Positions 19,715 to 64,000 of a stretch of DNA of 64,000 bases are shown in pieces. Made by a program: the position numbers and the translations under genes. The stretch comes from Escherichia phage T4. Where the stretch lies: the sequence record MZ375356.1, one strand, 5' to 3'. The stretch's first letter is position 1. Each line of letters starts with the position of its first letter. Below the pieces are notes generated by a model. It saw nothing but the letters and a program-made list of their open reading frames with translations. It did not search any database and had not been told where the DNA came from.

Positions 19715-19722
19715 TATTTATA
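19715..19722 (-). promoter_or_regulatory. late promoter TATAAATA (minus) upstream of alt
   Basis: TATAAATA on minus strand 26 nt upstream of alt ATG. Confidence 0.6.
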
Positions 19723-19727
19723 AAATT

Positions 19728-19745
19728 AAAGGCCCGAAGGCCTTT
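19728..19745 (-). terminator. hairpin terminator after ORF 19744..19932
   Basis: AAAGGCC-CGAA-GGCCTTT followed on minus strand by T-rich run. Confidence 0.5.
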
Positions 19746-27965: not shown

Positions 27966-29284
<1,319 letters not shown>

Positions 29285-29288
<4 letters not shown>

Positions 29289-29584
29289 TTACATTTATCC
29301 TCTTTTAGCTCTTGACGATAATAACATATCATAGTTTTCTGGTCATGTACATATCGTTTTACATCATTAAGCCAAATACGAAATTCCTGAGAATCTTCAA
29401 ATGGCATACCGACCCAGGCTTTACCATCAATAACTTTAACTTGCCAAGATAGTTTAGCTTCATCATATGACTTTATTTGCACAGGCCAATTAGGATGAAC
29501 TGTTTCTTTCTTTACTTCTAGAGGCTTTGTCGAACAACCAACTAGAAGACCAATAGATAATATTACTGCTGATAGTTTAATCAT
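29285..29584 (-). CDS. pseT.2: hypothetical lipoprotein-like protein pseT.2
   Basis: 99-aa ORF with N-terminal signal-like segment ending LVGCS. Confidence 0.5.
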
Positions 29585-29934
29585 TTAGAAAGGTCCTGGA
29601 TGTCTTCTGCGAACTTGTTGAAGGAGTTGTTGATTTGTTTTTCAACCAATCCTGGCTTATGAGCCACCACATCCGCCTTCTTTGCATCTTTGCGCAGTTT
29701 TTCATTTTCACGCTCAATAGCAGCAATTGCCTCACGATTTTTATTATTCATCGCATCAATATAATTATACTGAATTCGCAAATTATTTAATGCTAAGGCG
29801 TTTTCATTGGCCGTTTTTGTAATTTCAGTAACTGATGTTTCTAATCTTTCTACCTTATGTTTTAAAATAATAGATGTTCCGCCAAATGCTATTACAAGTA
29901 ATAGCAATCCAGCTGTAAAATTACTTACATGCAT
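29581..29934 (-). CDS. pseT.3: hypothetical membrane-anchored protein pseT.3
   Basis: 117-aa ORF with N-terminal hydrophobic helix. Confidence 0.5.
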   Translation of the reverse strand: MHVSNFTAGLLLLVIAFGGTSIILKHKVERLETSVTEITKTANENALALNNLRIQYNYIDAMNNKNREAIAAIERENEKLRKDAKKADVVAHKPGLVEKQINNSFNKFAEDIQDLSK

Positions 29935-30428
29935 AAAGTTTTAATAACCTCTACAATATCGTCTTGAGAAAGACCGTTAATTAAAATATGATGTTCAGCT
30001 GGAGATTTAGAAATTTTAAAGCATGCCTCAACATCTTCTGCCATATCCGATGCACTACGATTTGGATTACTAATACCAAGGCGATGTTTTCCCGTCAAAG
30101 GATTAACGATGATATAGCATTTGCAGCTATTGATATGAACATTGGGTTGAGTCTGATTAATGAACACTTCACAATCATACTTAGCAAGTTGATTTTCTAA
30201 AAAGACTTTCATCTCTTCAACCGCATCAGGAAGCATATCACGGGCTTGCTCAAGACGACGATTTCGATATTCTTTAATGGTCGTTTTCCGCTTGACTTGC
30301 TTAGCTAAATCTTTCTTAAGATCAGTGATATATCCAACTCGACGATTTCCTTTGAATACAGAAATCCCATCTGTAGTATCACCGTATGCTTCAACGACCA
30401 TTTCAGTAGTAATAAGTTGTAAATCCAT
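29925..30428 (-). CDS. alc: Alc, host transcription terminator acting on cytosine-containing DNA
   Basis: 167-aa ORF (from second Met), position between pseT cluster and rnlA. Confidence 0.8.
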   Translation of the reverse strand: MDLQLITTEMVVEAYGDTTDGISVFKGNRRVGYITDLKKDLAKQVKRKTTIKEYRNRRLEQARDMLPDAVEEMKVFLENQLAKYDCEVFINQTQPNVHINSCKCYIIVNPLTGKHRLGISNPNRSASDMAEDVEACFKISKSPAEHHILINGLSQDDIVEVIKTLCM

Positions 30429-30436
30429 CATAAAGT

Positions 30437-30491
30437 CCTCATGTTATGTCAGTAAGACTACTATAACACAACACGAGGGACTTGTAAACAA
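30437..30491 (-). promoter_or_regulatory. early-type promoter plus leader for alc (copy of the 17224..17278 element)
   Basis: 55 bp identical to the alt.-3 element except one base. Confidence 0.55.
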
Positions 30492-30492
30492 C

Positions 30493-32079
<1,587 letters not shown>

Positions 32080-32080
<1 letters not shown>

Positions 32081-32101
32081 AATAAAATGGGCCTTGCGGC
32101 C
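32080..32101 (-). terminator. hairpin between nrdB and denA
   Basis: GGGCC-GCAA-GGCCC on minus strand followed by ATTTTATT. Confidence 0.45.
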
Positions 32102-32107
32102 CACTCC

Positions 32108-32610
32108 TTAAAAGTATTTTTTAAAACTCATCATAACTTTATCATCAACATCATTATCAATCTGTGCAACAAGGTAAGATGACAGTTCTACTTCTTGCGG
32201 CGCGGATTGAACATTATCAGAATTAAGATATTCACGAATCCAAGGATATGGATGTTTAACCGGAGCATCGGTAATTGGGCATGGAAGACCGCACTGTTTC
32301 ATACGAGATACAGTTAAGTAATCAATAAAGCTCCACATGCTATTTGTATTTAATCCAGGAACATCACCATCTTTAAATAAATGAACTGCCCAGTCTTTTT
32401 CCTGGCGGTTAACTTCCATGAAAATATCAACTGCTTCTTGTTCACACTCTTGGGCAATTTTAACCCATTCATCACCATCAGTACCGGATTGAAGTTGACG
32501 AATAATATATTGGGTGCCTTTAAGGTGAAGCTGTTCATCACGTGCAATGAACTTCATAATCTTGGCATTACCTTCCATGATTTCCATGTTCTTATGGAAG
32601 TTAAAGGTAC
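32108..32610 (-). CDS. nrdB: ribonucleotide reductase small subunit NrdB, exon 2
   Basis: translation ...TFNFHKNMEIMEGNAKIMKFIARDEQLHL aligns to class Ia R2; boundary placed after intron terminal G; exon1+exon2 = 388 aa. Confidence 0.8.
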
Positions 32611-33870: not shown

Positions 33871-34565
33871 TTAGAATCCTTAAATTTACATTTATCATAA
33901 TGCCATCTTAAAGCATTGCCTTTATTAACTTTCTTACCACAGTGCGGGCAAGGTGGATACTCTGCTCCTTGTTTAGTTCTCAAAGAAATCAAATCACGGG
34001 TTTCTTTAGTATGAGGAACATCTCTTGTCGGAGAAATTGTACCATACATCGGATTAAGCACGCCGACTTTAGCAGCAGCTATATTCTTTTTAGCTTCTTC
34101 AGTTTTAGGCTTTCTCATCTTTTTCTTAGTTTCTTCGCTTTTAGCCCTTCCTTTGGTTGCCGCCGATATTTTGTGTTTGGTTTCTTCTGTTAAACGCAGA
34201 CCTGTTTTCGCTTTTGACATTTTCAGTCTCGTTTCTTCAGAAATGACCGTACCTTTGCGAAATTGCGAATTTAACTTCTTTGCATGGGCATATATTTTAG
34301 AATGAACTTTATAATGACGTTTCTTAGTTCCTTTCATATTGCACATCATGAAAAATGCGAATATAACAGATTTTACCGGATAAATCTTTGATAAAATAGC
34401 ATGCGCTATAAAATGCTCTCTAGCTGTTAATTCAACTAAATTTTCTTTATCATCAGAACCTCCCATGCATCTAGGGATTATATGATGTGTCTCTTTATAT
34501 TCGGATAAAGGTTCCCGAGCCTGAGCTCGGGAAATTAGGTCGTTATAGATTTTTTGATAATTCAT
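33867..34565 (-). CDS. mobE: HNH homing endonuclease MobE (intact ORF) between nrdA and nrdB
   Basis: 232-aa ORF with HNH motif HHIIPRCMGGSDDKENLVELTAREH and repeated basic S-E-ETK-K-MSKAK modules. Confidence 0.75.
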   Translation of the reverse strand: MNYQKIYNDLISRAQAREPLSEYKETHHIIPRCMGGSDDKENLVELTAREHFIAHAILSKIYPVKSVIFAFFMMCNMKGTKKRHYKVHSKIYAHAKKLNSQFRKGTVISEETRLKMSKAKTGLRLTEETKHKISAATKGRAKSEETKKKMRKPKTEEAKKNIAAAKVGVLNPMYGTISPTRDVPHTKETRDLISLRTKQGAEYPPCPHCGKKVNKGNALRWHYDKCKFKDSK

Positions 34566-36829
34566 TACAATTTACACGCTGCACAATCATCGGCTTTAGG
34601 AGTTTCTATTTCATAATCATCAGTACCAGAACCATCACGGGTATTATGATAATAGAAATTTTTAATGCCATAATACCATCCGTATAGCATGTCATCAATC
34701 ATTATTGACATTGGAACCTTTCCTTTTGGAAAAATCTGCGGGTCATAATATGTATTCGCTGAAGCTGATTGACATACCCATTTCAGCATAATAGCTACCT
34801 GCGTAAGATAAGGTTTATTACCTTTCTTAGCTAATTTCCATGTATAATCATAGAGGTCTATGTTATGCTCAATATTGGGCACGACTTGATTAAAGGAACC
34901 CTCTTTTGATTCTTTAACACTTACCGGTCCACGTGGAGGCTCGATGCCGTTTGTACTGTTAGAAACTTGGGAAGATGACTCACATGGCATAAGTGCTGAT
35001 AATGTGCTATTACGGATGCCAAATAGCTTAAGGTCTTCCCGCAGCGCCGACCAGTCACAAACGTATTTTGGAGCTGCGATTTGGTCAATCTTTTTATTGT
35101 ACCAGTCGATAGGTAATTCGCCTCGAGACCAACGAGTGTCTGAATAATATTCGCAAGGTCCTTTTTCTTTGGCGAGCTTAATGGATGCTTTAATGAGTCC
35201 ATACTGTAATCTCTCAAATAGTTCATGTGTTAAATCGTTAGCATCTTCATAAGAAGCAAAGTTACTTGCCAGCCAAGCTGCATAGTTGGTAACACCTACA
35301 CCGAGGTTACGACGCTTTTTAGCTTTTTCTGCTTCAGGAACCGGATATCCTTGGTAATCCAACAGATTATCAAGAGCACGAACTTGAACTTCTGCCAATT
35401 CATTAATTTTATCTTGGTCTTGCCAGTCAAAATTATCTAATACGAATGCAGAGAGAGTACACAATCCAATTTCAGCATCAGGGCTATTCACATCATTTGT
35501 TGGAATAGCAATTTCACAGCACAAGTTACTCTGACGAATAGGTGCCTTTTCACGAATAAACGGAGTATAGTTATTCGTATTATCAATGAACTGCACATAA
35601 ATCCTTGCTGTTCCTGAACGTTCAGTCATGAGCAATTCAAATAGTTCACGGGCTTTAATACGCTTTTTACGAATATTAGGGTCTTTTTCTGCTGCTTCGT
35701 ATAATTCACGGAAACGGTCTTGGTCTTTAAAATAAGAATAATAAAGCTCGCCACCCATTTCATGCGGACTGAACAAAGTAATGTAATCGTTTTTTCCAAA
35801 ACGTTCCATCATCAAATCATTCAGTTGAACACCATAATCCATATGACGAATGCGGTTTTCTTCTACGCCTTTGTTATTTTTCAAAACGAGAAGATTTTCA
35901 ACTTCCAAATGCCAAATAGGATAATAAGCAGTAGCAGCGCCGCCACGAATTCCACCCTGTGAACATGATTTAACTGCAGTCTGAAAATGTTTCCAAAAAG
36001 GAATAACACCAGTATGGCGTACTTCACCCATGCCAATCTTAGAACCTTCGGCACGAATCATACCAACGTTAATACCAATTCCAGCGCGTTTAGAGATATA
36101 TTCAACAATTGAAGCAGAAGCCTTATTGATAGACTTCAATGAATCTCCTGCCTCAATAACAACACATGAACTAAACTGTCGAGTCGGAGTACGACAACCA
36201 GCCATAATAGGAGTTGGCAATGAAATCTGTCGAGTAGATACTGCTTCATAAAAACGGATAACATGTTTTAATCTATCAACAGGTTCATCTTGATGCAGTG
36301 CCATTCCAATAGTCATAAATGCAAACTGTGGAGTTTCATAAATTTGACCAGTGGTTTTATCTTTAACTAGATATTTTTCTTTTAATTGCATTGCCCCGGA
36401 ATAAGTAAATTCCATATCCCGTTCGTGCTTAATTTTTGATTCTAAAAATGTAATTTCTTCTGCTGAATATTTTGACAATAATTCAGGGTCGTATTTACCT
36501 GCATTTACACAATAAGAAATATGGTCAATAAATGAACGTGGTTCATACTGCCCATAAACATGCTTACGAAGAGCAAACATTAAACAGCGTGCAGCTACAT
36601 ATTGATAATCAGGTTCTTCAACCGAAATAGAATTCGCAGCAGCCTTAATGACAATAGTCTGAATATCATCAGTTGTCATTCCATCACGGAGATAAGATTT
36701 AATATTTTCATATAATTCATAAGGATCTACTGATGTTCCTTCAGCTGCCCAAGATAAAACTTTAATAATTTTTTGTGGGTCAAAGCTCTGAGAAACACCA
36801 CTACTTTTGATAACATTAATTAATTGCAT
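34565..36829 (-). CDS. nrdA: ribonucleotide reductase large subunit NrdA
   Basis: 754-aa ORF, class Ia R1 with C-terminal Cys pair (DDCAACKL). Confidence 0.95.
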   Translation of the reverse strand: MQLINVIKSSGVSQSFDPQKIIKVLSWAAEGTSVDPYELYENIKSYLRDGMTTDDIQTIVIKAAANSISVEEPDYQYVAARCLMFALRKHVYGQYEPRSFIDHISYCVNAGKYDPELLSKYSAEEITFLESKIKHERDMEFTYSGAMQLKEKYLVKDKTTGQIYETPQFAFMTIGMALHQDEPVDRLKHVIRFYEAVSTRQISLPTPIMAGCRTPTRQFSSCVVIEAGDSLKSINKASASIVEYISKRAGIGINVGMIRAEGSKIGMGEVRHTGVIPFWKHFQTAVKSCSQGGIRGGAATAYYPIWHLEVENLLVLKNNKGVEENRIRHMDYGVQLNDLMMERFGKNDYITLFSPHEMGGELYYSYFKDQDRFRELYEAAEKDPNIRKKRIKARELFELLMTERSGTARIYVQFIDNTNNYTPFIREKAPIRQSNLCCEIAIPTNDVNSPDAEIGLCTLSAFVLDNFDWQDQDKINELAEVQVRALDNLLDYQGYPVPEAEKAKKRRNLGVGVTNYAAWLASNFASYEDANDLTHELFERLQYGLIKASIKLAKEKGPCEYYSDTRWSRGELPIDWYNKKIDQIAAPKYVCDWSALREDLKLFGIRNSTLSALMPCESSSQVSNSTNGIEPPRGPVSVKESKEGSFNQVVPNIEHNIDLYDYTWKLAKKGNKPYLTQVAIMLKWVCQSASANTYYDPQIFPKGKVPMSIMIDDMLYGWYYGIKNFYYHNTRDGSGTDDYEIETPKADDCAACKL

Positions 36830-37695: not shown

Positions 37696-38703
37696 CATTA
37701 TGTTCAGATAAGGTCGTTAATCTTACCCCGGAATTATATCCAGCTGCATGTCACCATGCAGAGCAGACTATATCTCCAACTTGTTAAAGCAAGTTGTCTA
37801 TCGTTTCGAGTCACTTGACCCTACTCCCCAAAGGGATAGTCGTTAGGCATTTATGTAGAACCAATTCCATTTATCAGATTTTACACGATAAGTAACTAAT
37901 CCAGACGAAATTTTAAAATGTCTAGCTGCATCTGCTGCACAATCAAAAATAACCCCATCACATGAAATCTTTTTAATATTACTAGGCTTTTTACCTTTCA
38001 TCTTTTCTGATATTTTAGATTTAGTTATGTCTGAATGCTTATGATTAAAGAATGAATTATTTTCACCTGAACGATTTCTGCATTTACTACAAGTATAAGC
38101 AGAAGTTTGTATGCGAACACCGCACTTACAAAACTTATGGGTTTCTGGATTCCAACGCCCGTTTTTACTTCCGGGTTTACTGTAAAGAGCTTTCCGACCA
38201 TCAGGTCCAAGTTTAAGCATCTTAGCTTTAACAGTTTCAGAACGTTTCTTAATAATTTCTTCTTTTAATGGATGCGTAGAACATGTATCACCAAACGTTG
38301 CATCAATATTGTATCCATTAATTTTAGAAAGCTCTTTAATCCAAAAATTTTCTCGTTCAATAATCAAATCTTTCTCATATGGAATTTCTTCCAAAATAGA
38401 ACATAAACACATTACCATGTTTGTTAAAAGACCTCTGAAGTTTTATAGAAGAATGGCATCCTTTTTCTAAATCTTTAAAATGCCTCTTCCATCTCTTTTC
38501 AAAATCTTTAGCACTTCCTACATATACTTTATTGTTTAAAGTATTTTTAATCTGATAAATTCCGCTTTTCATAAATACCTCTTTAAATATAGAAGTATTT
38601 ATTAAAGGGCAGTCCTACAATTTAGCACGGGATTGTCTACTAGAGAGGTTCCCCGTTTAGATAGATTACAAGTATAAGTCACCTTATACTCAGGCCTCAA
38701 TTA
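37696..38703 (-). mobile_element. td group I intron (1008 nt) carrying disrupted I-TevI
   Basis: 5' boundary CTTGGGT/TAATTGAGGCCTGAG and 3' boundary CTGAACATAATG/CTACCG match the remembered T4 td intron; 8 nt shorter than the 1016 nt remembered for T4. Confidence 0.9.
37843..38572 (-). pseudogene. I-TevI: I-TevI GIY-YIG homing endonuclease, frameshifted
   Basis: ORF 38375..38572 MKSGIYQIKNTLNNKVYVGS...KHGNVF then frame change; ORF 37843..38418 resumes ...CSILEEIPYEKDLIIERENFWIKEL to end ...KWNWFYINA; GNVF-EC junction lacks 2 nt. Confidence 0.9.
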
Positions 38704-40944: not shown

Positions 40945-41037
40945 TTAGCAGTATTGCCGATAGTTGTATAGTACCATAAAGCTTTATGCTTGTAAACCGT
41001 TTTGTCCATAAAGCTTTATGCTTGTAAACCGTTTTGT
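40945..41037 (-). promoter_or_regulatory. early-type promoter region with perfect 32-bp tandem duplication (40974..41005 and 41006..41037)
   Basis: each copy carries GTTTAC -35 and a GCTTTA MotA-box-like motif; only the proximal copy is followed by GGTACTATACAACTATC; element family also at 57760 and 60818. Confidence 0.5.
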
Positions 41038-42062: not shown

Positions 42063-42690
42063 TCATAGCTGGCATAATTCGCAATACTCTGGGTCTTCGA
42101 GAGGTATCCAACCTGAGTTGAAATACTTTACCATCGATTTAGCAGTTGTATCAGTTATATTTATATTACCTTTAACTCTTCGCCATCCAGGAGTTTTACC
42201 GTACAGATTAGAGGATAATAACACATAATTCTCGTAAGCAATATGAGATAATTTCCAAGACTCTATATTAGCTCGTGATGTTTTCCAAGGTCTAAAATCG
42301 TCACGGTTCATATAAAGCCAATCTCATATGCTCTCTAACTTCCGGGTCTTTGGCTGGATGAGTTTCACCACTCACACCAAATCCACCACCAGCATATACC
42401 AGATTAAAATAGTCTGGATTATCTCTGGCATTTACTTCAAGTTGGTATTTTCGTTCTGCTTCAATAACATCCAAGTCATCATCAATTTGAATTATTTTAA
42501 CGCTCGGTTTTTGAAGCATTAGCGCATTCAAAAATCTTTTTTGTTTACATGAGCTCCAGTATTCCTTTCCGGAAGAGTCATATATTATTCCGTTCTCAAA
42601 TGAGCAATTTAATTTACTACCGATATAGTAGTATGGCGGAGTCTTATTTTTGACACGGTCTTCAAATGTAAACCAATATACTATATTCAT
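42063..42690 (-). pseudogene. segG: GIY-YIG homing endonuclease SegG-like (gene 32.1), frameshifted
   Basis: ORF 42301..42690 has GIY-YIG core (YYYIGSK, NLVYAGGG); ORF 42063..42311 overlaps in another frame; span 628 nt. Confidence 0.6.
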
Positions 42691-47900: not shown

Positions 47901-48822
47901 CCGTTCGACAGTGTTTGAAGTTGGCGATGACACATCTCATCACTTTTATTCTCAACGTAATAAAGACGGTATAGCGTTTAACATTAATGGTACTGTAATG
48001 CCAATAAACATTAATGCTTCCGGTTTGATGAATGTGAATGGCACTGCAACATTCGGTCGTTCAGTTACAGCCAATGGTGAATTCATCAGCAAGTCTGCAA
48101 ATGCTTTTAGAGCAATAAACGGTGATTACGGATTCTTTATTCGTAATGATGCCTCTAATACCTATTTTTTGCTCACTGCAGCCGGTGATCAGACTGGTGG
48201 TTTTAATGGATTACGCCCATTATTAATTAATAATCAATCCGGTCAGATTACAATTGGTGAAGGCTTAATCATTGCCAAAGGTGTTACTATAAATTCAGGC
48301 GGTTTAACTGTTAACTCGAGAATTCGTTCTCAGGGTACTAAAACATCTGATTTATATACCCGTGCGCCAACATCTGATACTGTAGGATTCTGGTCAATCG
48401 ATATTAATGATTCAGCCACTTATAACCAGTTCCCGGGTTATTTTAAAATGGTTGAAAAAACTAATGAAGTGACTGGGCTTCTATACTTAGAACGTGGCGA
48501 AGAAGTTAAATCTCCTGGTACACTGACTCAGTTTGGTAACACACTTGATTCGCTTTACCAAGATTGGATTACTTATCCAACGACGCCAGAAGCGCGTACC
48601 ACTCGCTGGACACGTACATGGCAGAAAACCAAAAACTCTTGGTCAAGTTTTGTTCAGGTATTTGACGGAGGTAACCCTCCTCAACCATCTGATATCGGTG
48701 CTTTACCATCTGATAATGCTACAATGGGGAATCTTACTATTCGTGATTTCTTGCGAATTGGTAATGTTCGCATTGTTCCTGACCCAGTGAATAAAACGGT
48801 TAAATTTGAATGGGTTGAATAA
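44956..48822 (+). CDS. 34: long tail fibre proximal subunit gp34
   Basis: 1288-aa ORF with internal tandem ~30-aa repeats (RRGIARIATTAQVNQ, RRGVAEIATQQETNAG, RGTLRVATQVEAAAG). Confidence 0.95.
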   Translation: MAEIKRKFRAEDGLDAGGDKIINVALADRTVGTDGVNVDYLIQENTVQQYDPTRGYLKDFVIIYDNRFWAAINDIPKPAGAFNSGRWRALRTDANWITVSSGSYQLKSGEAISVNTAAGNDITFTLPSSPIDGDTIVLQDIGGKPGVNQVLIVAPVQSIVNFRGEQVRSVLMTHPKSQLVLIFSNRLWQMYVADYSREAIVVTPANTYQAQSNDFIVRRFTSAAPINVKLPRFANHGDIINFVDLDKLNPLYHTIVTTYDETTSVQEVGTHSIEGRTSIDGFLMFDDNEKLWRLFDGDSKARLRIITTNSNIRPNEEVMVFGANNGTTQTIELKLPTNISVGDTVKISMNYMRKGQTVKIKAADEDKIASSVQLLQFPKRSEYPPEAEWVTVQELVFNGETNYVPVLELAYIEDSDGKYWVVQQNVPTVERVDSLNDSTRARLGVIALATQAQANVDLENSPQKELAITPETLANRTATETRRGIARIATTAQVNQNTTFSFADDIIITPKKLNERTATETRRGVAEIATQQETNAGTDDTTIITPKKLQARQGSESLSGIVTFVSTAGATPASSRELNGTNVYNKNTDNLVVSPKALDQYKATPTQQGAVILAVESEVIAGQSQQGWANAVVTPETLHKKTSTDGRIGLIEIATQSEVNTGTDYTRAVTPKTLNDRRATESLSGIAEIATQVEFDAGVDDTRISTPLKIKTRFNSTDRTSVVALSGLVESGTLWDHYTLNILEANETQRGTLRVATQVEAAAGTLDNVLITPKKLLGTKSTEAQEGVIKVATQSETVTGTSANTAVSPKNLKWIAQSEPTWAATTAIRGFVKTSSGSITFVGNDTVGSTQDLELYEKNSYAVSPYELNRVLANYLPLKAKAADTNLLDGLDSSQFIRRDIAQTVNGSLTLTQQTNLSAPLVSSSTGEFGGSLAANRTFTIRNTGAPTSIVFEKGPASGANPAQSMSIRVWGNQFGGGSDTTRSTVFEVGDDTSHHFYSQRNKDGIAFNINGTVMPININASGLMNVNGTATFGRSVTANGEFISKSANAFRAINGDYGFFIRNDASNTYFLLTAAGDQTGGFNGLRPLLINNQSGQITIGEGLIIAKGVTINSGGLTVNSRIRSQGTKTSDLYTRAPTSDTVGFWSIDINDSATYNQFPGYFKMVEKTNEVTGLLYLERGEEVKSPGTLTQFGNTLDSLYQDWITYPTTPEARTTRWTRTWQKTKNSWSSFVQVFDGGNPPQPSDIGALPSDNATMGNLTIRDFLRIGNVRIVPDPVNKTVKFEWVE

Positions 48823-48830
48823 GAGGTATT

Positions 48831-49949
48831 ATGGAAAAATTTATGGCAGAGTTTGGACAAGGATATGTCCAAACGCCATTTTTATCGGAAAGTAATTCAG
48901 TAAGATATAAAATAAGTATAGCGGGTTCTTGCCCGCTTTCTACAGCAGGACCATCATATGTTAAATTTCAGGATAATCCTGTAGGAAGTCAAACATTTAG
49001 CGCAGGCCTTCATTTAAGAGTTTTTGACCCTTCCACCGGAGCATTAGTTGATAGTAAGTCATATGCTTTTTCGACTTCAAATGATACTACATCAGCTGCT
49101 TTTGTTAGTTTCATGAATTCTTTGACGAATAATCGAATTGTTGCTATATTAACTAGTGGAAAGGTTAATTTTCCTCCTGAAGTAGTATCTTGGTTAAGAA
49201 CCGCCGGAACGTCTGCCTTTCCATCTGATTCTATATTGTCAAGATTTGACGTATCATATGCTGCTTTTTATACTTCTTCTAAAAGAGCTATCGCATTAGA
49301 GCATGTTAAACTGAGTAATAGAAAAAGCACAGATGATTATCAAACTATTTTAGATGTTGTATTTGACAGTTTAGAAGATGTAGGAGCTACCGGGTTTCCA
49401 AGAAGAACGTATGAAAGTGTTGAGCAATTCATGTCGGCAGTTGGTGGAACTAATAACGAAATTGCGAGATTGCCAACTTCAGCTGCTATAAGTAAATTAT
49501 CTGATTATAATTTAATTCCTGGAGTTGTTCTTTATCTTAAAGCTCAGTTATATGCTGATGCTGATTTACTTGCTCTTGGAACTACAAATATATCTATCCG
49601 TTTTTATAATGCATCTAACGGATATATTTCTTCAACACAAGCTGAATTTACTGGGCAAGCTGGGTCATGGGAATTAAAGGAAGATTATGTAGTTGTTCCA
49701 GAAAACGCAGTAGGATTTACGATATACGCACAGAGAACTGCACAAGCTGGCCAAGGTGGCATGAGAAATTTAAGCTTTTCTGAAGTATCAAGAAATGGCG
49801 GCATTTCGAAACCTGCTGAATTTGGCGTCAATGGTATTCGTGTTAATTATATCTGCGAATCCGCTTCACCTCCGGATATAATGGTACTTCCTACGCAAGC
49901 ATCGTCTAAAACTGGTAAAGTGTTTGGGCAAGAATTTAGAGAAGTTTAA
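48831..49949 (+). CDS. 35: long tail fibre hinge protein gp35
   Basis: 372-aa ORF. Confidence 0.9.
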   Translation: MEKFMAEFGQGYVQTPFLSESNSVRYKISIAGSCPLSTAGPSYVKFQDNPVGSQTFSAGLHLRVFDPSTGALVDSKSYAFSTSNDTTSAAFVSFMNSLTNNRIVAILTSGKVNFPPEVVSWLRTAGTSAFPSDSILSRFDVSYAAFYTSSKRAIALEHVKLSNRKSTDDYQTILDVVFDSLEDVGATGFPRRTYESVEQFMSAVGGTNNEIARLPTSAAISKLSDYNLIPGVVLYLKAQLYADADLLALGTTNISIRFYNASNGYISSTQAEFTGQAGSWELKEDYVVVPENAVGFTIYAQRTAQAGQGGMRNLSFSEVSRNGGISKPAEFGVNGIRVNYICESASPPDIMVLPTQASSKTGKVFGQEFREV

Positions 49950-49954
49950 ATTGA

Positions 49955-49980
49955 GGGAGCCTTCGGGTTCCCTTTTTCTT
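49955..49980 (+). terminator. hairpin terminator after gene 35
   Basis: GGGAGCC-TTCG-GGTTCCC followed by TTTTT. Confidence 0.7.
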
Positions 49981-49988
49981 TATAAATA
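49981..49988 (+). promoter_or_regulatory. late promoter TATAAATA for gene 36
   Basis: exact TATAAATA 23 nt upstream of ATG 50012. Confidence 0.7.
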
Positions 49989-50011
49989 CTATTAAAATAA
50001 AGGGGCATACA

Positions 50012-50677
50012 ATGGCTGATTTAAAAGTAGGTTCAACAACTGGAGGCTCTGTCATTTGGCATCAAGGAAATTTTCCATTGAATCCAGCCGGTGACGATGT
50101 ACTCTATAAATCATTTAAAATATATTCAGAATATAACAAACCACAAGCTGCTGATAACGATTTCGTTTCTAAAGCTAATGGTGGTACTTATGCATCAAAG
50201 GTAACATTTAACGCTGGCATTCAAGTCCCATATGCTCCAAACATCATGAGCCCATGCGGGATTTATGGGGGTAACGGTGATGGTGCTACTTTTGATAAAG
50301 CAAATATCGATATTGTTTCATGGTATGGCGTAGGATTTAAATCGTCATTTGGTTCAACAGGCCGAACTGTTGTAATTAATACACGCAATGGTGATATTAA
50401 CACAAAAGGTGTTGTGTCGGCAGCTGGTCAAGTAAGAAGTGGTGCGGCTGCTCCTATAGCAGCGAATGACCTTACTAGAAAGGACTATGTTGATGGAGCA
50501 ATAAATACTGTTACTGCAAATGCAAACTCTAGGGTGCTACGGTCTGGTGACACCATGACAGGTAATTTAACAGCGCTAAACTTTTTCTCGCAGAATCCTG
50601 CATCTCAACCCTCACACGTTCCACGATTTGACCAAATCGTAATTAAGGATTCTGTTCAAGATTTCGGCTATTATTAA
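50012..50677 (+). CDS. 36: long tail fibre distal connector gp36
   Basis: 221-aa ORF. Confidence 0.9.
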
Positions 50678-50685
50678 GAGGACTT

Positions 50686-53600
50686 ATGGCTACTTTAAAA
50701 CAAATACAATTTAAAAGAAGCAAAATCGCAGGAACACGTCCTGCTGCTTCAGTATTAGCCGAAGGTGAATTGGCTATAAACTTAAAAGATAGAACAATTT
50801 TTACTAAAGATGATTCAGGAAATATCATCGATCTAGGTTTTGCTAAAGGCGGGCAAGTTGATGGCAACGTTACTATTAACGGACTTTTGAGATTAAATGG
50901 CGATTATGTACAAACAGGTGGAATGACTGTAAACGGACCCATTGGTTCTACTGATGGCGTCACTGCAAAAATTTTCAGATCTACACAGGGTTCATTTTAT
51001 GCAAGAGCAACAAACGATACTTCAAATGCCCATTTATGGTTTGAAAATGCCGATGGCACTGAACGTGGCGTTATATATGCTCGCCCTCAAACTACAACTG
51101 ACGGTGAAATACGCCTTAGGGTTAGACAAGGAACAGGAAGCACTGCCAACAGTGAATTCTATTTCCGCTCTATAAATGGAGGCGAATTTCAGGCTAACCG
51201 TATTTTAGCATCAGATTCGTTAGTAACAAAACGCATTGCGGTTGATACCGTTATTCATGATGCCAAAGCATTTGGACAATATGATTCTCACTCTTTGGTT
51301 AATTATGTTTATCCTGGAACCGGTGAAACAAATGGTGTAAACTATCTTCGTAAAGTTCGCGCTAAGTCCGGTGGTACAATTTATCATGAAATTGTTACTG
51401 CACAAACAGGCCTGGCTGATGAAGTTTCTTGGTGGTCTGGTGATACACCAGTATTTAAACTATACGGTATTCGTGACGATGGCAGAATGATTATCCGTAA
51501 TAGCCTTGCATTAGGTACATTCACTACAAATTTCCCGTCTAGTGATTATGGCAACGTCGGTGTAATGGGCGATAAGTATCTTGTTCTCGGCGACACTGTA
51601 ACTGGCTTGTCATACAAAAAAACTGGTGTATTTGATCTAGTTGGCGGTGGATATTCTGTTGCTTCTATTACTCCTGACAGTTTCCGTAGTACTCGTAAAG
51701 GTATATTTGGTCGTTCTGAGGACCAAGGCGCAACTTGGATAATGCCTGGTACAAATGCTGCTCTCTTGTCTGTTCAAACACAAGCTGATAATAACAATGC
51801 TGGAGACGGACAAACCCATATCGGGTACAATGCTGGCGGTAAAATGAACCACTATTTCCGTGGTACAGGTCAGATGAATATCAATACCCAACAAGGTATG
51901 GAAATTAACCCGGGTATTTTGAAATTGGTAACTGGCTCTAATAATGTACAATTTTACGCTGACGGAACTATTTCTTCCATTCAACCTATTAAATTAGATA
52001 ACGAGATATTTTTAACTAAATCTAATAATACTGCGGGTCTTAAATTTGGAGCTCCTAGCCAAGTTGATGGCACAAGGACTATCCAATGGAACGGTGGTAC
52101 TCGCGAAGGACAGAATAAAAACTATGTGATTATTAAAGCATGGGGTAACTCATTTAATGCCACTGGTGATAGATCTCGCGAAACGGTTTTCCAAGTATCA
52201 GATAGTCAAGGATATTATTTTTATGCTCATCGTAAAGCTCCAACCGGCGACGAAACTATTGGACGTATTGAAGCTCAATTTGCTGGGGATGTTTATGCTA
52301 AAGGTATTATTGCCAACGGAAATTTTAGAGTTGTTGGATCAAGCGCTTTAGCCGGCAATGTTACTATGTCTAACGGTTTGTTTGTCCAAGGTGGTTCTTC
52401 TATTACTGGACAAGTTAAAATTGGCGGAACAGCAAACGCACTGAGAATTTGGAACGCTGAATATGGTGCTATTTTCCGTCGTTCGGAAAGTAACTTTTAT
52501 ATTATTCCAACCAATCAAAATGAAGGAGAAAGTGGAGACATTCACAGCTCTTTGAGACCTGTGAGAATAGGATTAAACGATGGCATGGTTGGGTTAGGAA
52601 GAGATTCTTTTATAGTAGATCAAAATAATGCTTTAACTACGATAAACAGTAACTCTCGCATTAATGCCAACTTTAGAATGCAATTGGGGCAGTCGGCATA
52701 CATTGATGCAGAATGTACTGATGCTGTTCGCCCGGCGGGTGCAGGTTCATTTGCTTCCCAGAATAATGAAGACGTCCGTGCGCCGTTCTATATGAATATT
52801 GATAGAACTGATGCTAGTGCATATGTTCCTATTTTGAAACAACGTTATGTTCAAGGCAATGGCTGCTATTCATTAGGGACTTTAATTAATAATGGTAATT
52901 TCCGAGTTCATTACCATGGCGGCGGAGATAACGGTTCTACAGGTCCACAGACTGCTGATTTTGGATGGGAATTTATTAAAAACGGTGATTTTATTTCACC
53001 TCGCGATTTAATAGCAGGCAAAGTCAGATTTGATAGAACTGGTAATATCACTGGTGGTTCTGGTAATTTTGCTAACTTAAACAGTACAATTGAATCACTT
53101 AAAACTGATATCATGTCGAGTTACCCAATTGGTGCTCCGATTCCTTGGCCGAGTGATTCAGTTCCTGCTGGATTTGCTTTGATGGAAGGTCAGACCTTTG
53201 ATAAGTCCGCATATCCAAAGTTAGCTGTTGCATATCCTAGCGGTGTTATTCCAGATATGCGCGGGCAAACTATCAAGGGTAAACCAAGTGGTCGTGCTGT
53301 TTTGAGCGCTGAGGCAGATGGTGTTAAGGCTCATAGCCATAGTGCATCGGCTTCAAGTACTGACTTAGGTACTAAAACCACATCAAGCTTTGACTATGGT
53401 ACGAAGGGAACTAACAGTACGGGTGGACACACTCACTCTGGTAGTGGTTCTACTAGCACAAATGGTGAGCACAGCCACTACATCGAGGCATGGAGTGGTA
53501 CTGGTGTAGGTGGTAATAAGATGTCATCATATGCCGTATCACACAGGGCGGGTGGGAGTAACACTAATGCAGCAGGGAACCACAGTCACACTTTCTCTTT

Positions 53601-53766
53601 TGGGACTAGCAGTGCTGGCGACCATTCCCACTCTGTAGGTATTGGTGCTCATACCCACACGGTAGCAATTGGATCACATGGTCATACTATCACTGTAAAT
53701 AGTACAGGTAATACAGAAAACACGGTTAAAAACATTGCTTTTAACTATATCGTTCGTTTAGCATAA
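50686..53766 (+). CDS. 37: long tail fibre distal subunit gp37 (receptor binding)
   Basis: 1026-aa ORF with C-terminal His-x-His repeats ([33 protein letters not shown]). Confidence 0.95.
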
Positions 53767-53793
53767 GGAGAGGGGCTTCGGCCCCTTCTAAAT

Positions 53794-54345
53794 ATGAAAA
53801 TATATCATTATTATTTTGACACTAAAGAATTTTACAAAGAAGAAAATTACAAACCGGTTAAAGGCCTCGGTCTTCCTGCTCATTCAACAATTAAAAAACC
53901 TTTAGAACCTAAAGAAGGATACGCGGTTGTATTTGATGAACGTACTCAGGATTGGATTTATGAAGAAGACCATCGCGGAAAACGCGCATGGACTTTTAAT
54001 AAAGAAGAAATTTTTATAAGTGACATTGGAAGCCCGGTTGGTATAACTTTCGATGAGCCCGGCGAATTTGATATATGGACTGATGACGGTTGGAAAGAAG
54101 ACGAAACATATAAGCGAGTTTTAATTCGTAATAGAAAAATTGAAGAATTATATAAAGAGTTCCAAGTTTTAAATAATATGATTGAAGCTTCTGTCGCCAA
54201 TAAAAAGGAAAAATTCTATTATAAAAACCTTAAGCGGTTCTTTGCTCTTTTAGAAAAGCATGAGCATTTAGGTGGTGAATTCCCTTCATGGCCTGAAAAA
54301 GAACAGAAGCCTTGGTATAAGCGTTTATTCAAGCATTACGTATAA
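53794..54345 (+). CDS. 38: tail fibre assembly chaperone gp38
   Basis: 183-aa ORF. Confidence 0.9.
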   Translation: MKIYHYYFDTKEFYKEENYKPVKGLGLPAHSTIKKPLEPKEGYAVVFDERTQDWIYEEDHRGKRAWTFNKEEIFISDIGSPVGITFDEPGEFDIWTDDGWKEDETYKRVLIRNRKIEELYKEFQVLNNMIEASVANKKEKFYYKNLKRFFALLEKHEHLGGEFPSWPEKEQKPWYKRLFKHYV

Positions 54346-54348
54346 ATA
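54341..54348 (+). promoter_or_regulatory. late promoter TATAAATA for holin gene t
   Basis: exact TATAAATA 17 nt upstream of ATG 54366, overlapping the gene 38 stop. Confidence 0.65.
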
Positions 54349-54365
54349 TCTTAAAAGGAGGGTCT

Positions 54366-55022
54366 ATGGCAGCACCTAGAATATCATTTTCGCCCTCTGA
54401 TATTCTATTTGGTGTTCTAGATCGCTTGTTCAAAGATAACGCTACCGGGAAGGTTCTTGCTTCCCGGGTAGCTGTCGTAATTCTTTTGTTTATAATGGCG
54501 ATTGTTTGGTATAGGGGAGATAGTTTCTTTGAGTACTATAAGCAATCAAAGTATGAAACATACAGTGAAATTATTGAAAAGGAAAGAACTGCACGCTTTG
54601 AATCTGTCGCCCTGGAACAACTCCAGATAGTTCATATATCATCTGAGGCAGACTTTAGTGCGGTGTATTCTTTCCGCCCTAAAAACTTAAACTATTTTGT
54701 TGATATTATAGCATACGAAGGAAAATTACCTTCAACAATAAGTGAAAAATCACTTGGAGGATATCCTGTTGATAAAACTATGGATGAATATACAGTTCAT
54801 TTAAATGGACGTCATTATTATTCCAACTCAAAATTTGCTTTTTTACCAACTAAAAAGCCTACTCCCGAAATAAACTACATGTACAGTTGTCCATATTTTA
54901 ATTTGGATAATATCTATGCTGGAACGATAACCATGTACTGGTATAGAAATGATCATATAAGTAATGACCGCCTTGAATCAATATGTGCTCAGGCGGCCAG
55001 AATATTAGGAAGGGCTAAATAA
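54366..55022 (+). CDS. t: holin T
   Basis: 218-aa ORF with one N-proximal transmembrane segment (VAVVILLFIMAIVWY). Confidence 0.9.
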   Translation: MAAPRISFSPSDILFGVLDRLFKDNATGKVLASRVAVVILLFIMAIVWYRGDSFFEYYKQSKYETYSEIIEKERTARFESVALEQLQIVHISSEADFSAVYSFRPKNLNYFVDIIAYEGKLPSTISEKSLGGYPVDKTMDEYTVHLNGRHYYSNSKFAFLPTKKPTPEINYMYSCPYFNLDNIYAGTITMYWYRNDHISNDRLESICAQAARILGRAK

Positions 55023-57866: not shown

Positions 57867-58016
57867 TTACTGCATGACTGTGATAACTGTCATGATAACA
57901 CGTTGAATTCCGAACGCAAGAAGACCTCCTGCTACGGCTGGAACAACGCCTAAACCCGCCAGTAAAATGCTACCAGATACTAATGCAGCGCTTGTAATAC
58001 CAATGAATGGACTCAT
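57867..58016 (-). CDS. small hydrophobic membrane peptide (49 aa; positional motA.1)
   Basis: ORF MSPFIGITSAALVSGSILLAGLGVVPAVAGGLLAFG...; ATGA overlap with gene 52 stop. Confidence 0.45.
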   Translation of the reverse strand: MSPFIGITSAALVSGSILLAGLGVVPAVAGGLLAFGIQRVIMTVITVMQ

Positions 58017-59341
58017 TTGATTTCCTCTAAATCTTTGGTGTATTCAGTAACTACATCAGTAGTTTTCCAATATTCGTTTTCTTCTTTTTTAGCTTTAGCT
58101 TCTTCAGCAAGTTTCTTTGCTTCATCGGAAGTCATATGAAAAATATTCATTCCAACTAGTTTATCAACATAAGAAGAATACATATCGATTTTCGAAAGTT
58201 CTTCGGTCAGTTCTTTACGAGTTTTACCCTGTACAACAATTTCACCTGAAATTACTTTCTTAATGAAATGTGCTTTGGCAAAGGCTAAACGAAAAGCTGA
58301 CTCAGTTTCTTTAATTTTGTTATCAATTCGTTTTTGGACATAAGTTTTACGAACTTCAACAAAGTCTTTAATTAAATCAACTACGTTATCGTAAACTTGC
58401 AGCTTTCCTTTCTCATTAATAACCGTAATATTCTGGGAACGACGCTCAATCAGTCCGAAGTCTTTCATAATTTTTGCATGGCGTTCTTCTTCGTTATCGC
58501 TCAAAGAATATTCTTTGCGGAATTTAACTTTGAAGCCAAAACCATGCTCACCACAAGCATCATCCCATGTAATGAAGCCTTTATCTTCAAGTGGGTCTAA
58601 GATTTTACTCACATAAGTTTCACGATCATACTTATACGGAATCTCAGTGATATGCATTTGAGTTCGTGAAGTAAACTTATATGTTCCACGAATTTCATAT
58701 TGCCCATCAATTTCAACGACTTCACCACGAAATTCTGGGAATTCTACTTTCGGTTTAGTTACTTTCTTTCCTTGAAGAGCTTGCAGTACAGCTTTCTTGA
58801 CAGAAGAAACACTATGAGGAAGAATGTAAGTTGCATAACCAGTTGCAATACCGGAAACGCCATTAAGAAGAACAGTAGGAATAATAGGCAAATAGAAAGC
58901 AGGCGGAATGTGTTCTTTATCTTGATGTACCGGAGCATATTCAGTATCTTTATATACGTTATAGAAATTTTTACTTACACGAGCAAAAATATAACGACTT
59001 GCCGCTGCCTTTTGGACAGTACGAGAACCAAAGTTTCCTTGACCATCTAACAGAGGAAAGTTATTATTCCAAGTATTAGCCATCAAAGCACCTGCGTCTT
59101 GTGCAGAGTTTTCACCATGATGATATCCAAGGTCCGCTACACCACCTGCAATAGAAGCGAGTTTGTGAAACTTATCTTTATTTCCTCGTGCCAAATCAAG
59201 AGCTCGAGCAATAACAAATCGTTGAACTGGCTTAAATCCATCAATCATATTTGGGATAGCACGATTTTCAACCGTGTACATAGCATAAGCCAATGCTTCA
59301 TTATCAATGATACTTTTTAAATCGCGATTATTCAGTTGCAT
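58013..59341 (-). CDS. 52: DNA topoisomerase II medium subunit gp52
   Basis: 442-aa GyrA-like ORF MQLNNRDLKSIIDNEALAYAMYTVENRAIPN... Confidence 0.95.
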   Translation of the reverse strand: MQLNNRDLKSIIDNEALAYAMYTVENRAIPNMIDGFKPVQRFVIARALDLARGNKDKFHKLASIAGGVADLGYHHGENSAQDAGALMANTWNNNFPLLDGQGNFGSRTVQKAAASRYIFARVSKNFYNVYKDTEYAPVHQDKEHIPPAFYLPIIPTVLLNGVSGIATGYATYILPHSVSSVKKAVLQALQGKKVTKPKVEFPEFRGEVVEIDGQYEIRGTYKFTSRTQMHITEIPYKYDRETYVSKILDPLEDKGFITWDDACGEHGFGFKVKFRKEYSLSDNEEERHAKIMKDFGLIERRSQNITVINEKGKLQVYDNVVDLIKDFVEVRKTYVQKRIDNKIKETESAFRLAFAKAHFIKKVISGEIVVQGKTRKELTEELSKIDMYSSYVDKLVGMNIFHMTSDEAKKLAEEAKAKKEENEYWKTTDVVTEYTKDLEEIK

Positions 59342-59484
59342 AAATTTACCATACTAGTGAATGTAGTGCCAATAACATCAGAAATGAAAAGCACGACTTG
59401 AATTAATCCGAACATTACTCCGTAATATAGTGCTACCAATAAAGCAGCAAGGGCTAATGAATAGCCCAAGATTTTCTTAATCAT
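59332..59484 (-). CDS. small membrane protein (50 aa; positional 52.1)
   Basis: ORF MIKKILGYSLALAALLVALYYGVMFGLIQVVLF..., hydrophobic. Confidence 0.4.
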   Translation of the reverse strand: MIKKILGYSLALAALLVALYYGVMFGLIQVVLFISDVIGTTFTSMVNLCN

Positions 59485-59630
59485 TAGATAACAACACAAA
59501 TGTTAAATATGCACACATACCCTGGGCTAAAGCTTGTGAAAACACACTGCTAGCATCGATACAGATAGTTAAAACACATGCTACTATCCAACAAATAAAT
59601 GAAATAACTCCTAATAATTTTGCAATTCAT
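59477..59630 (-). pseudogene. ac: ac (acriflavine sensitivity membrane protein), frameshift immediately after start codon
   Basis: ATG at 59630; hydrophobic body IAKLLGVISFICWIVACVLTICIDASSVFSQALAQGMCAYLTFVLLSND is one frame off; span 154 nt = 156-2; intact product would be 51 aa. Confidence 0.6.
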
Positions 59631-59637
59631 ATTTTCC

Positions 59638-59718
59638 TCACTGGCGTCCGAAGACGCCTTTAGTTTTAAGATTGTTACGATAGAACTGCATCACGTGTTC
59701 GTTATGGAAATTACTCAT
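59638..59718 (-). CDS. stp: Stp peptide (26 aa)
   Basis: exact translation [26 protein letters not shown]; TAATG overlap with ndd stop. Confidence 0.85.
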
Positions 59719-60566: not shown

Positions 60567-60694
60567 TTTACACCATTCCAAATTGTTTCAACCACGGATT
60601 TTAAACCATTTTGATGAATATCCATTCCTACTACCGCTGAAACCTGTGCAACCCACCACGCACAAGCAATAAGTACAGAATTCAAAATTTTCAT
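60563..60694 (-). CDS. small hydrophobic peptide (43 aa; ndd.x cluster)
   Basis: ORF MKILNSVLIACAWWVAQVSAVVGMD... Confidence 0.3.
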   Translation of the reverse strand: MKILNSVLIACAWWVAQVSAVVGMDIHQNGLKSVVETIWNGVK

Positions 60695-61716: not shown

Positions 61717-61744
61717 AATTTTCCTTAGTTAAGGGCCGAAGCCC

Positions 61745-62526
61745 TTATTTAAATTGTTCAGTAACGTCTTCAACTACTTCATATTGGCAGGTACGCATTT
61801 TAGCATCGTTGTAATCAATCGGAATTGATACTACATCGCGAGGATGAACTTTAACTTTTACAACTCGGCTGGTTGAACTACCAAAGTGACGAATATAAGA
61901 TTTAGAACACACATGCAAACCACGAGAACAAGTTTGTGTATCATCGTCATTCACACGAGTACGTGGCATTTTAACTACTACCCGGACTGTTATCAAAGGT
62001 GTTTGAGTGACAGTCAAAGTAATTGCTGCGAACTACTTTCCAAGCATAGAAAACCATCTTCTGTAATTTCAATATCGTTTGCTACCAAGAAATCAAAGAG
62101 TCGAGATACCGCTTTTTGGCTTGGGTTTTCCAACAGATTTTCCAAGAACGGAAAATAAAATTCAAAGTTTTCGCCTTTTTCCATCGAGTCAAGAATACGA
62201 TCAACCAAACCAGACCGCAATTCAATATTTTGATAGAACAAGCTTCCACCTTCAATTCGAACATCGCCGGAAATATATTTTTCAACAGCACGACGAACAT
62301 TAATTTTTTGTGCCGCTTCTTCCAACTTATCCGCTACAAGCAGATTAAGAATTTCCTGGAAGTTTGAATGAGTATTAGGAGTTGCGTTATAAGTTACGCC
62401 ATCAACAGTAATTGAAATGAATTTTTTAGATGCATTCCAAATAATGTCAGATTTAGCAACTGGAGCAATAACTGCATCGCTATTAACTTTAACTGTAATA
62501 TCACCGCTAATAGTAACTTTAGGACG
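61745..62526 (-). pseudogene. rIIB: rIIB remnant: N-terminal ~51 codons absent, internal frameshift near 62017
   Basis: [30 protein letters not shown]... through ...[10 protein letters not shown] (in ORF 62014..62850) then frame change to ...CSRGLHVCSKSYIRHFGSS...EQFK (ORF 61745..62017); remembered N-terminus MYNIKCLTKNEQAEIV not present. Confidence 0.6.
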
Positions 62527-63990
62527 AGGAGCTTTACTTTTAACTACCTTTGGAATATAACTTTTTACTAAAGCTTCAATTTCTGACAAATAATGAATGT
62601 TAACTTCATCACTTTCAAACATCGCCATAATATCAGGAAGCAAATCAATCTGCGATTCTACTTCTGGATTAATAAACAGAAGACGTTCGTTATGATGAAT
62701 ATTCAAAGTGTTATTAAATTCACTATCATCTAACGCACGTGCTAATCCACGGACAATATTAACACGATTTTTAATATTATCAATAACGATATTAATTTTT
62801 GTTGTATTAATACCAAACAGACGAACTTGATGCAACGGCTGAAGTTTCATGACTTTGCTTAATGCGCTTCAGTCGAGGGTCAAGATTTACTTCATACACA
62901 ACTCCCGCGTTGCATAACTTACTGTCAGGTTCAAACATGCTCTGCATCTTTTTATATGACAGATTTTTAGTCGTGAATTTGACTGAATTACTAATCATAT
63001 AATCTCGAGCAGAATACCCCATCTTCAATTCACGATGTGTGACGAGGAGATGTAGATTCTTTAAATCGTTTTACATCTTCATTAAATGCTTTCTCACTGA
63101 GTTCTTTAACTCGTTCAATAATATTTTTACGAGTGCGATCATCCAGTGAAAGAGCCTCGCGAGATGGAGCAATATCAAGTGAACCCATTGGAAACTTAAT
63201 GTAATTCACTTCATTGCGAATGCTTAGCCAGTTACGGTCTCTAATAACACCATCGATAGGATAAACAATACCACCGTAGATAGCATATAATCCACCACGA
63301 TCAGGCCAGTATCTTTCTGGATTTACACCGTAATAGTCATCAAAATCCGGAAAATAATCAATTTCGCGGTCAAGACCATTAATGATAGCCAAATCTTTGA
63401 ACGGTCGCATGATATAAGAAACTTCATAAGCAAAGTTTCTAAAGTCTTTTTCTTCAACTGGAACTACGATTTCAATACCAGTTTTATCATCTGGACCCAT
63501 TTCTTTTACGAATGTAGGTTTAATCTGTGGACCATCACCATCCATGTAAGCTATAACCACGAATTTCACCTTTATGATACGAAGTAATACTAAACGTATC
63601 AGTATAACTAAACGGAGATTTAGAACCTAAACCAAATCCGCCAATAAAGTCATTAGATTCAGCTTTAGATGAACTGAAGTATGAATTATACAACCCAGGA
63701 GAATTATCATCACCTTGAATATCAAAATCACTCATACCCGGACCAAAATCTCGACAAACAAATCGTGGGTCTAAACGTCCAGGAACTTGTATGATAAATT
63801 TTTCAGGATTTCCATTAAGTGCATGAGCATCAATCATGTTAGTAATCAATTCACGGACTACTGCGCGAATCTTGTTTGTATACAAATCAGATGACAGAAT
63901 TTTAAATACTTTAGGAGATGCTGTGATGCTAAATGCTTTTGATTTAGAACCATTACCAAGAATTGTTTCTTTTTCAGTGGTGATAATCAT
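62527..63990 (-). pseudogene. rIIA: rIIA remnant: N-terminal ~490 codons in four frame segments, fused to rIIB remnant
   Basis: begins [20 protein letters not shown]; successive ORFs 63535..63990, 63030..63569, 62807..63028, 62014..62850 each change frame; too short for 725-aa rIIA. Confidence 0.6.
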
Positions 63991-64000
63991 AATTTCCTCA

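Follow-up and report, generated by a model that had tools for sequence, protein, structure and literature searches.

A frameshifted ac allele in a genome-reduced phage T4, probably one of many undesigned small deletions of the CiPGr lineage

Bacteriophage T4 carries ac, a non-essential 156-bp gene for a 51-aa membrane protein, whose mutation or deletion yields acriflavine-resistant phage and whose product has been proposed to enter the host membrane and block AcrAB-TolC, leading to dye accumulation (bioRxiv 10.1101/2025.06.30.662393). The acriflavine sensitivity of T4 has likewise been ascribed to ac (PNAS 2026, PMC13250531). These two sources bear out a statement made in the initial annotation of the DNA analysed here, namely that acriflavine resistance in T4 is classically reached by losing ac. 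In the presence of wild-type Ac, acridines build up in infected cells, through raised uptake in the classical view and through a block of AcrAB-TolC efflux in the recent proposal. The spontaneous ac mutants of the classical literature, which are acridine resistant, and the engineered ac deletion mutant are, like the allele described below, loss-of-function lesions in the same 156-bp gene; they were selected with acridines or built on purpose, whereas no selection with acridines is on record for the present allele, which is among numerous passenger or escape lesions. Frameshift deletions are reportedly among the known classes of ac mutants, as Wang and Ripley are said to have described in Genetics in 1998.

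Published CRISPR-escape deletions in non-essential genes of T4 range from 17 bp to 18 kb and are flanked by minihomologies (Wu et al., mBio 2021, PMC8262927). In the CiPGr procedure, T4 went through as many as 600 transfers on E. coli MG1655 hosts that carried SpCas9, lambda-Red and a pooled pTarget library, in which a non-essential gene was covered by at most 8 spacers, every one of them accompanied by 50-bp homology arms, in cultures supplemented with 20 µg/ml chloramphenicol and 50 µg/ml kanamycin; the smallest T4 of that study, T4_583L (151,790 bp), had a history of ~583 transfers on such Cas9/lambda-Red/spacer-library hosts (Yuan et al., NAR 2022). The same authors observed deletions of one or two bases outside their design, which were confined to T4 populations and not seen in T7 or two Salmonella phages, and suggested that some of these 1-2-base deletions were escape mutations; their paper mentions acridine zero times (Yuan et al., NAR 2022). 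For this lineage, undesigned 1-2-base deletions are already published as a class, as are the ac gene and the phenotype of its loss.

We present here the analysis of a 64,000-nucleotide stretch of phage T4 DNA (hereafter the window), which is colinear with T4 on the reference strand, beginning in gene 23 at T4 position ~105,284 and reaching as far as the start of rIIA. The ac locus comprises the following features, all in window coordinates.

59477..59630, minus strand: ac (acridine sensitivity; ORF 52.2), almost certainly a frameshifted null allele, 154 nt against 156, placed by alignment to AF158101.6 and by synteny.
59625..59626, minus strand: footprint of the 2-bp deletion, the AT left of wild-type ATAT at the codon 2/3 boundary (AAT ATT GCA becoming AAT TGC A).
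59550..59630, minus strand: ORF read from the ac start codon, MNCKIIRSYFIYLLDSSMCFNYLYRC followed by TAG, 26 aa, with only Met-Asn in common with Ac.
59477..59626, minus strand: orphaned 49-codon Ac body and its TAA, in the +1 frame, with a TGA immediately 5'.
59636..59639, minus strand: Shine-Dalgarno GAGG of the ac ATG, as read from the sequence, with a spacing of 5 nt as in T4.

Aligned with the ac gene of AF158101.6 (165342-165497, 156 nt, 51 aa), where it is annotated as 'Ac acridine resistance protein, predicted membrane protein', the window allele displays one 2-bp gap and is identical over its other 154 nt. The wild-type gaATATtg is reduced to gaATtg at T4 165490-1, equivalent to window 59625/59626, changing GAGGAAAATATGAATATTGCAAAA into GAGGAAAATATGAATTGCAAAA; which AT of the ATAT was deleted is ambiguous, with a microhomology of 2. 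This alignment, together with the conserved synteny and a match to phrog_2501, confirmed that the ORF is T4 ac and that its span falls two short of the 156 nt expected, both of which had been proposed from the sequence alone. Wild-type T4 ac (AAD42488.1; UniProt AC_BPT4; PF26944; phrog_2501) therefore has the same locus, Shine-Dalgarno, ATG and body as the window allele, which differs from it in being 2 bases short at codons 2-3, with the body off the start frame.

Minus-strand translation agreed with the initial annotation in placing the start codon and the hydrophobic 49-residue body in different frames, and refined its position: the frameshift assigned to codon 2 is real, but Asn2 (AAT) is kept and the first altered codon is codon 3 (Ile to Cys). 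In frame 0, the ATG (59630-59628) opens the reading of MNCKIIRSYFIYLLDSSMCFNYLYRC down to the stop TAG at 59552-59550, a product made of MN and 24 wrong residues, for which no PHROG family was matched. In frame +1, a TGA precedes 49 open codons, IAKLLGVISFICWIVACVLTICIDASSVFSQALAQGMCAYLTFVLLSND (beginning IAKLLGVISFICW and ending VLLSND), closed by TAA at 59479-59477. The protein sequence of this body is the same as in wild-type T4 Ac, and the PHROG profile search assigned it to phrog_2501 with E=4e-25, compared with E=2e-25 for wild-type Ac. Translation of the 154 nt revealed no ATG, GTG or TTG start upstream of Val29 in the frame of the orphaned body, and the alignment to T4 revealed no second, compensating indel within ac. 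By homology and by position, the locus belongs to the Phage_T4_Ac family (PF26944, phrog_2501), membership being scored with phrog_2501; the Pfam scan used matched not even wild-type Ac. Functional members of this family have an intact ORF of 51-52 codons from the start codon, whereas that of the window stops after 26 codons. Because the ATG frame ends this early and the body lacks a usable start, the window ac is almost certainly a frameshifted pseudogene or null allele. At most, the ATT now located just after the ATG, at 9 nt from the Shine-Dalgarno, could support initiation at a very low level and yield a trace of near-full-length Ac.

The expected consequences for the phage can be laid out stepwise. 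With one AT of ATAT lost at codons 2-3, ribosomes recruited by the unchanged Shine-Dalgarno and ATG make Met-Asn and 24 out-of-frame residues before the TAG, and the 51-aa two-helix membrane protein Ac would not be produced. According to the literature, Ac normally drives the accumulation of acridines in infected cells; dye build-up would be predicted to fail without it, and the phage to plate on acriflavine. Since published ac knock-outs are acriflavine resistant, the phage of this window should be resistant as well, which is a reasonable and fair prediction. The smallest CiPGr T4, or a sibling of it, is hence predicted to be acriflavine resistant, a trait relevant for its use as a chassis or for intercalator-based antiphage chemistry.

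The gene order stp-ac-52.1-52 is kept around the lesion, the T4 annotation being colinear with the window, and the neighbours of ac are in contrasted states.

59638..59718, minus strand: stp, upstream neighbour of ac, 26 aa, intact, with no difference from T4.
59332..59484, minus strand: 52.1, downstream neighbour of ac, its start overlapping the ac stop, with its own 2-bp deletion at ~59371.
58013..59341, minus strand: gene 52 (topoisomerase II medium subunit), 442 aa, intact, with no private change.

The deletion in 52.1 changes its C-terminus, and the ORF now extends into the start of gene 52. Both small membrane proteins, Ac and the product of 52.1, would be lost through independent frameshifts; 52.1 begins within the terminal part of ac, and its translation is probably coupled to that of ac. 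Gene 52 itself shows no difference from OL964735, and its exact protein is widespread in T4-type genomes.

The ac deletion was absent from all of the T4 (13/13) and 462 T4-like records covering the region. In those records the ac/52.1 stretch counts 505 bases, against 501 in the window, and the 52.1 deletion is absent too. An exact search for the mutant ac junction found it in neither the viral, nor the genome (prokaryotic), nor the metagenome contig collections, nor in 20 further loci searched exactly, and no exact protein record was retrieved for either the mutant 52.1 or the mutant Ac product. The lesion, known from one assembly, is judged from these comparisons not to be ordinary natural variation.

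The origin of the window could be traced through its other mutant proteins. Seven of them are identical to GenBank proteins of T4_583L (QZB entries with locus tag T4583L), and those identical to proteins of OL964745 ('Mutant T4 clone T4_7t1') include UJD20389, UJD20401 and UJD20450. The exact protein matches are the following.

segE' (125 aa): QZB89790 of T4_583L.
gp29 minus one residue: QZB89800 of T4_583L and UJD20401 of OL964745.
30.3 minus one residue: QZB89811 of T4_583L and UJD20414 of OL964745.
30.7': QZB89815 of T4_583L.
cd.4': QZB89825 of T4_583L.
arn.3 minus one residue: QZB89862 of T4_583L and UJD20472 of OL964745.
ndd.1': QZB89868 of T4_583L.
hoc': UJD20389 of OL964745.
frd': UJD20450 of OL964745.

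The products of segE', 30.7', cd.4' and ndd.1' are otherwise found only on the T4_583L genome. As these four window-private lesions occur nowhere else, the window is, judged by these identities, a T4 of the CiPGr lineage, either T4_583L or a very close sibling or derivative, and would be expected to match T4_583L at ac itself. A different provenance of the T4 stock, from another laboratory citing OL964735, was considered and abandoned in view of these identities to CiPGr proteins. The CiPGr mutants T4_583L, T4_7t1 and T4_3t3 (OL964735) have in common with the window an 869-bp rIIB-rIIA deletion, strain SNPs and many 1-3-bp deletions; unlike the window, OL964735 and OL964745 keep ac and 52.1 intact.

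The larger rearrangements of the window consist of three deletions and three expansions of tandem repeats.

Junction 62511-62523: rIIB-rIIA fusion, 869-bp deletion, at a 13-bp minihomology.
Junction ~4932-4939: C-terminal half of hoc, 579-bp deletion, at a short ATGATA-like homology.
60628-60637: ndd.5 to ndd.2a, 350-bp deletion, between two 14-bp direct repeats GCGGTAGTAGTTGG.
40974-41037: perfect 32-bp tandem duplication, two copies of CCATAAAGCTTTATGCTTGTAAACCGTTTTGT, between frd.3 and the end of gene 32.
9517: +20 bp, two added copies of TGTTATTGGA, upstream of uvsY, near oriF.
~6475: +9 bp, one added copy of TGGTGGAAT, inside segE.

The fusion leaves an rIIB remnant at 61744-62523, with approximately its first 50 codons gone, and an rIIA remnant at 62524-64000, with approximately its last 690 nt gone. 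Being common to OL964735 and OL964745, the rII deletion would have occurred early in the CiPGr lineage or have been present already in the parental stock. Both rII remnants have further 2- and 3-bp deletions. In hoc, an extra 2-bp deletion lies upstream in the gene, at 5316, and the 65-aa Hoc fragment is that of UJD20389. The 350-bp deletion is private to the window with respect to OL964735 and OL964745, and the 32-bp duplication, whose unit contains a TGCTT motif resembling a MotA box, is absent from T4 and from both of these siblings. The hoc, ndd.5-ndd.2a and rII deletions fit the escape class described by Wu et al. (PMC8262927), whereas the 2-bp ac lesion is far below 17 bp and, with respect to the NGG protospacers that overlap it, lies neither at a Cas9 cut site nor in a seed.

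The small indels among which the ac lesion is found were counted relative to OL964735, whose sequence is modern and near-isogenic; comparison with the old T4 reference yields many differences, a good part of which are known reference errors (adjacent base swaps, compensated indels). Counted in this way, the window holds 54 small deletions (38 of 2 bp, 12 of 3 bp and 4 of 1 bp), gains restricted to the +9, +20 and +32 repeat expansions with no +1 event, and ~11 substitutions, mostly in tail-fibre genes and t. Ordinary T4 laboratory sublines differ by only ~8-13 variants genome-wide (PMC8573959), which puts this layer far beyond normal stock drift. Frameshifting indels (n=43) are distributed between dispensable genes (36) and intergenic positions (7), while the essential genes, which occupy 25 kb or 39% of the window, contain none (P=5e-10 under uniform placement); essential genes were reached solely by in-frame 3-bp indels, in genes 29 and 34. 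This avoidance and its in-frame exceptions point to real mutations filtered by selection and not to sequencing error. Over the stretch shared with OL964745, 22 of 45 window small deletions are common to both base for base, and 23 are private to the window, including those in ac, 52.1, ndd.1, cd.3, cd.4, arn.1 and rIIB; OL964745 in turn has 13 private small deletions of its own. A unit of a tandem repeat was removed in 23/45 deletions, against 8 expected, a value reached in 0/5000 simulations, and the deleted bases are 85% A/T against 65% locally. The ac lesion has the same slippage-like form, ATAT becoming AT through loss of a tandemly repeated unit with a microhomology of 2. Frameshifting indels occur at a density of ~1 per 900 bp of dispensable DNA, which gives the 156-bp ac gene a ~15% probability of being hit, so that no selection on ac loss is needed.

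Taken with the lineage assignment, these observations lead us to favour, with a probability of about 0.85, the reading that the window carries a loss-of-function allele of ac in a laboratory genome-reduced T4 of CiPGr origin, as one of ~55 undesigned 1-3-bp deletions and with no ac-specific selection required. The deletion would have arisen in the course of hundreds of serial transfers on E. coli with SpCas9, lambda-Red and the pooled spacer/donor library, with slippage at short A/T repeats, error-prone repair or both as its mechanism, whether or not escape from Cas9 was being selected. Small deletions would have accumulated in dispensable genes, ac being one of them. The case calls for caution more generally, since a lesion that resembles a footprint of selection may turn out to be a passenger when the genome around it has accumulated many mutations.

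Selection could nevertheless have acted through Cas9, an ac-targeting CiPGr spacer having favoured disruption of its protospacer. The lineage was indeed kept under pooled SpCas9 with several spacers per non-essential gene, some of the 1-2-base deletions were considered as escapes by Yuan et al., and genes such as 30.2 (4 deletions), arn.1 (3) and segE (4) were hit repeatedly, as expected with several spacers each. Two NGG protospacers, ATGAATATTGCAAAATTATT-AGG and AATATTCATATTTTCCTCAC-TGG, also overlap the ac site, but the deletion is only PAM-distal in both candidates, at positions 13-16 or 16-19. Across the layer, the PAM or seed is overlapped by 38% of deletions compared with 57% at random nearby sites, hence without enrichment, 33% of deletions fall outside any NGG protospacer, and deletions lie farther from cut sites than under chance placement. 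Regulatory regions were left untargeted, yet approximately 9 events lie between genes, and the sizes of published T4 escape deletions in non-essential genes, given above, start well beyond 2 bp. In light of these observations, simple Cas9 escape seems insufficient to account for the whole small-deletion layer, and we consider escape at ac unlikely, while still a tangible prospect.

The same observations leave room for a more speculative reading, in which the ac lesion is the passenger of an uncharacterised T4-specific process, deletion-only, A/T-biased and dominated by 2-bp events, operating under chronic Cas9/lambda-Red exposure and distinct from classical escape. It draws on the third of events located outside NGG protospacers, on the lack of PAM/seed enrichment and on the restriction of the phenomenon to T4, to the exclusion of T7 and two Salmonella phages, and we hold it to be possible but doubtful. 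Were it true, break repair or replication in T4 would have left a new in vivo mutational signature in these genomes. The layer, in its poor fit to simple Cas9 escape, may in any case merit a mutational-signature analysis.

The culture medium offers another potential source of selection. Chloramphenicol is a substrate of AcrAB-TolC, and Ac has been proposed to inhibit this pump; by blocking it, Ac would raise chloramphenicol in infected cells of the CiPGr hosts, grown with chloramphenicol and kanamycin at the concentrations given above, and an ac-null phage would be fitter. By lifting the AcrAB-TolC block, the loss of ac might in this way have brought a mild advantage in medium with chloramphenicol. 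Against this, the two siblings went through the same regime with ac intact, the hosts carry a chloramphenicol-resistance gene, the background chance of hitting ac makes selection unnecessary, and the efflux-block model is itself unproven. We regard selection by the medium as improbable.

A consensus error, with a wild-type ac in the actual phage, appears more improbable still. The deletion is present in a single assembly and sits within a short AT repeat, and the deletions of this class were reported for T4 only, whose DNA is heavily modified. Errors, however, would not avoid essential genes (0/43) while allowing in-frame 3-bp events there; an independent assembly contains half of the layer in exactly the same form, with private events in each sibling as well; and the deleted bases are A/T and not modified cytosines. 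Moreover, a Logan assembly of another run equals the window over 5.8 kb except at one 2-bp site, so that such sites behave as segregating alleles. For the layer as a whole, sequencing error was considered as a source and rejected in view of the avoidance of essential genes and the sharing with the sibling assembly.

The last alternative is the one raised by the initial annotation, which saw in the small-deletion spectrum a possible history of acridine exposure, as speculation; on this reading the small frameshifts would be due to the drug, which would also have favoured the ac-null allele. Acridines are frameshift mutagens, and both the classical link of ac loss with acridine resistance and the excess of deletions (54) over substitutions (~11) speak for it. 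Spectra of acridine mutagenesis in T4, however, comprise additions and deletions, mostly of 1 bp, as Crick et al. in 1961, Streisinger et al. in 1966 and Ripley and co-workers reportedly found, with one-base events as the main class, whereas no +1 event and only 4 of 1 bp occur in the window, where -2 and -3 dominate. The proflavine-induced T4 frameshifts (the Crick-Brenner FC mutants, the Streisinger and Ripley spectra) resemble the ac lesion in being small frameshifts at short repeats, and differ from it in that the window lesion is a -2 within a deletion-only layer. Resistance to acridines or m-AMSA, which is topoisomerase-directed, can also map to gene 52, which here has no private change. 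Two siblings carry the same deletion layer with an intact ac, implying that the layer accumulated without ac loss, and a hit in ac had a ~15% probability from the background alone. Our search for literature on acridine-mutagenised, sequenced T4 returned nothing relevant. With a CiPGr lineage whose documented history includes no acridine and already reports this deletion class, a deletion-only spectrum, an unchanged gene 52 and ac-intact siblings, this part of the initial annotation does not hold, and acridine exposure is hardly credible as the origin of the allele.

Several further features of the small-indel layer were observed along the window. The seg and intron homing endonucleases are broken by small deletions in 5 out of 5 cases: segD (1658), segE (6461-6836), segG (42215-42316), I-TevI (38304-38405) and I-TevIII (33023). 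By contrast, mobE is intact in the window and frameshifted in the sibling OL964745. The in-frame 3-bp deletions of gene 29 (14530) and gene 34 (47970), both essential structural genes, are common to sibling CiPGr genomes, and the gp34 variant was also detected in the Logan assembly of SRR22215992, which is devoid of the 2-bp deletion of the window at 44885. Most of the few substitutions relative to OL964735 cluster at 48482-54571, in genes 34, 35, 36, 37 and t (tail fibre and holin), and this cluster could reflect adaptation to long passage. Finally, the large laboratory-dispensable genes alt (2 kb), nrdA (2.3 kb), rnlA, pseT, denA, denB and ndd, several of them located at 15000-21600 (alt region), 28100-32600 (pseT-denA) and 34300-36600 (nrdA), are free of frameshifts, while the small ORFs beside these large genes received 2-4 hits each. 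The layer is thus strongly clustered, which suggests either that the large genes matter under these conditions or that the process is targeted.
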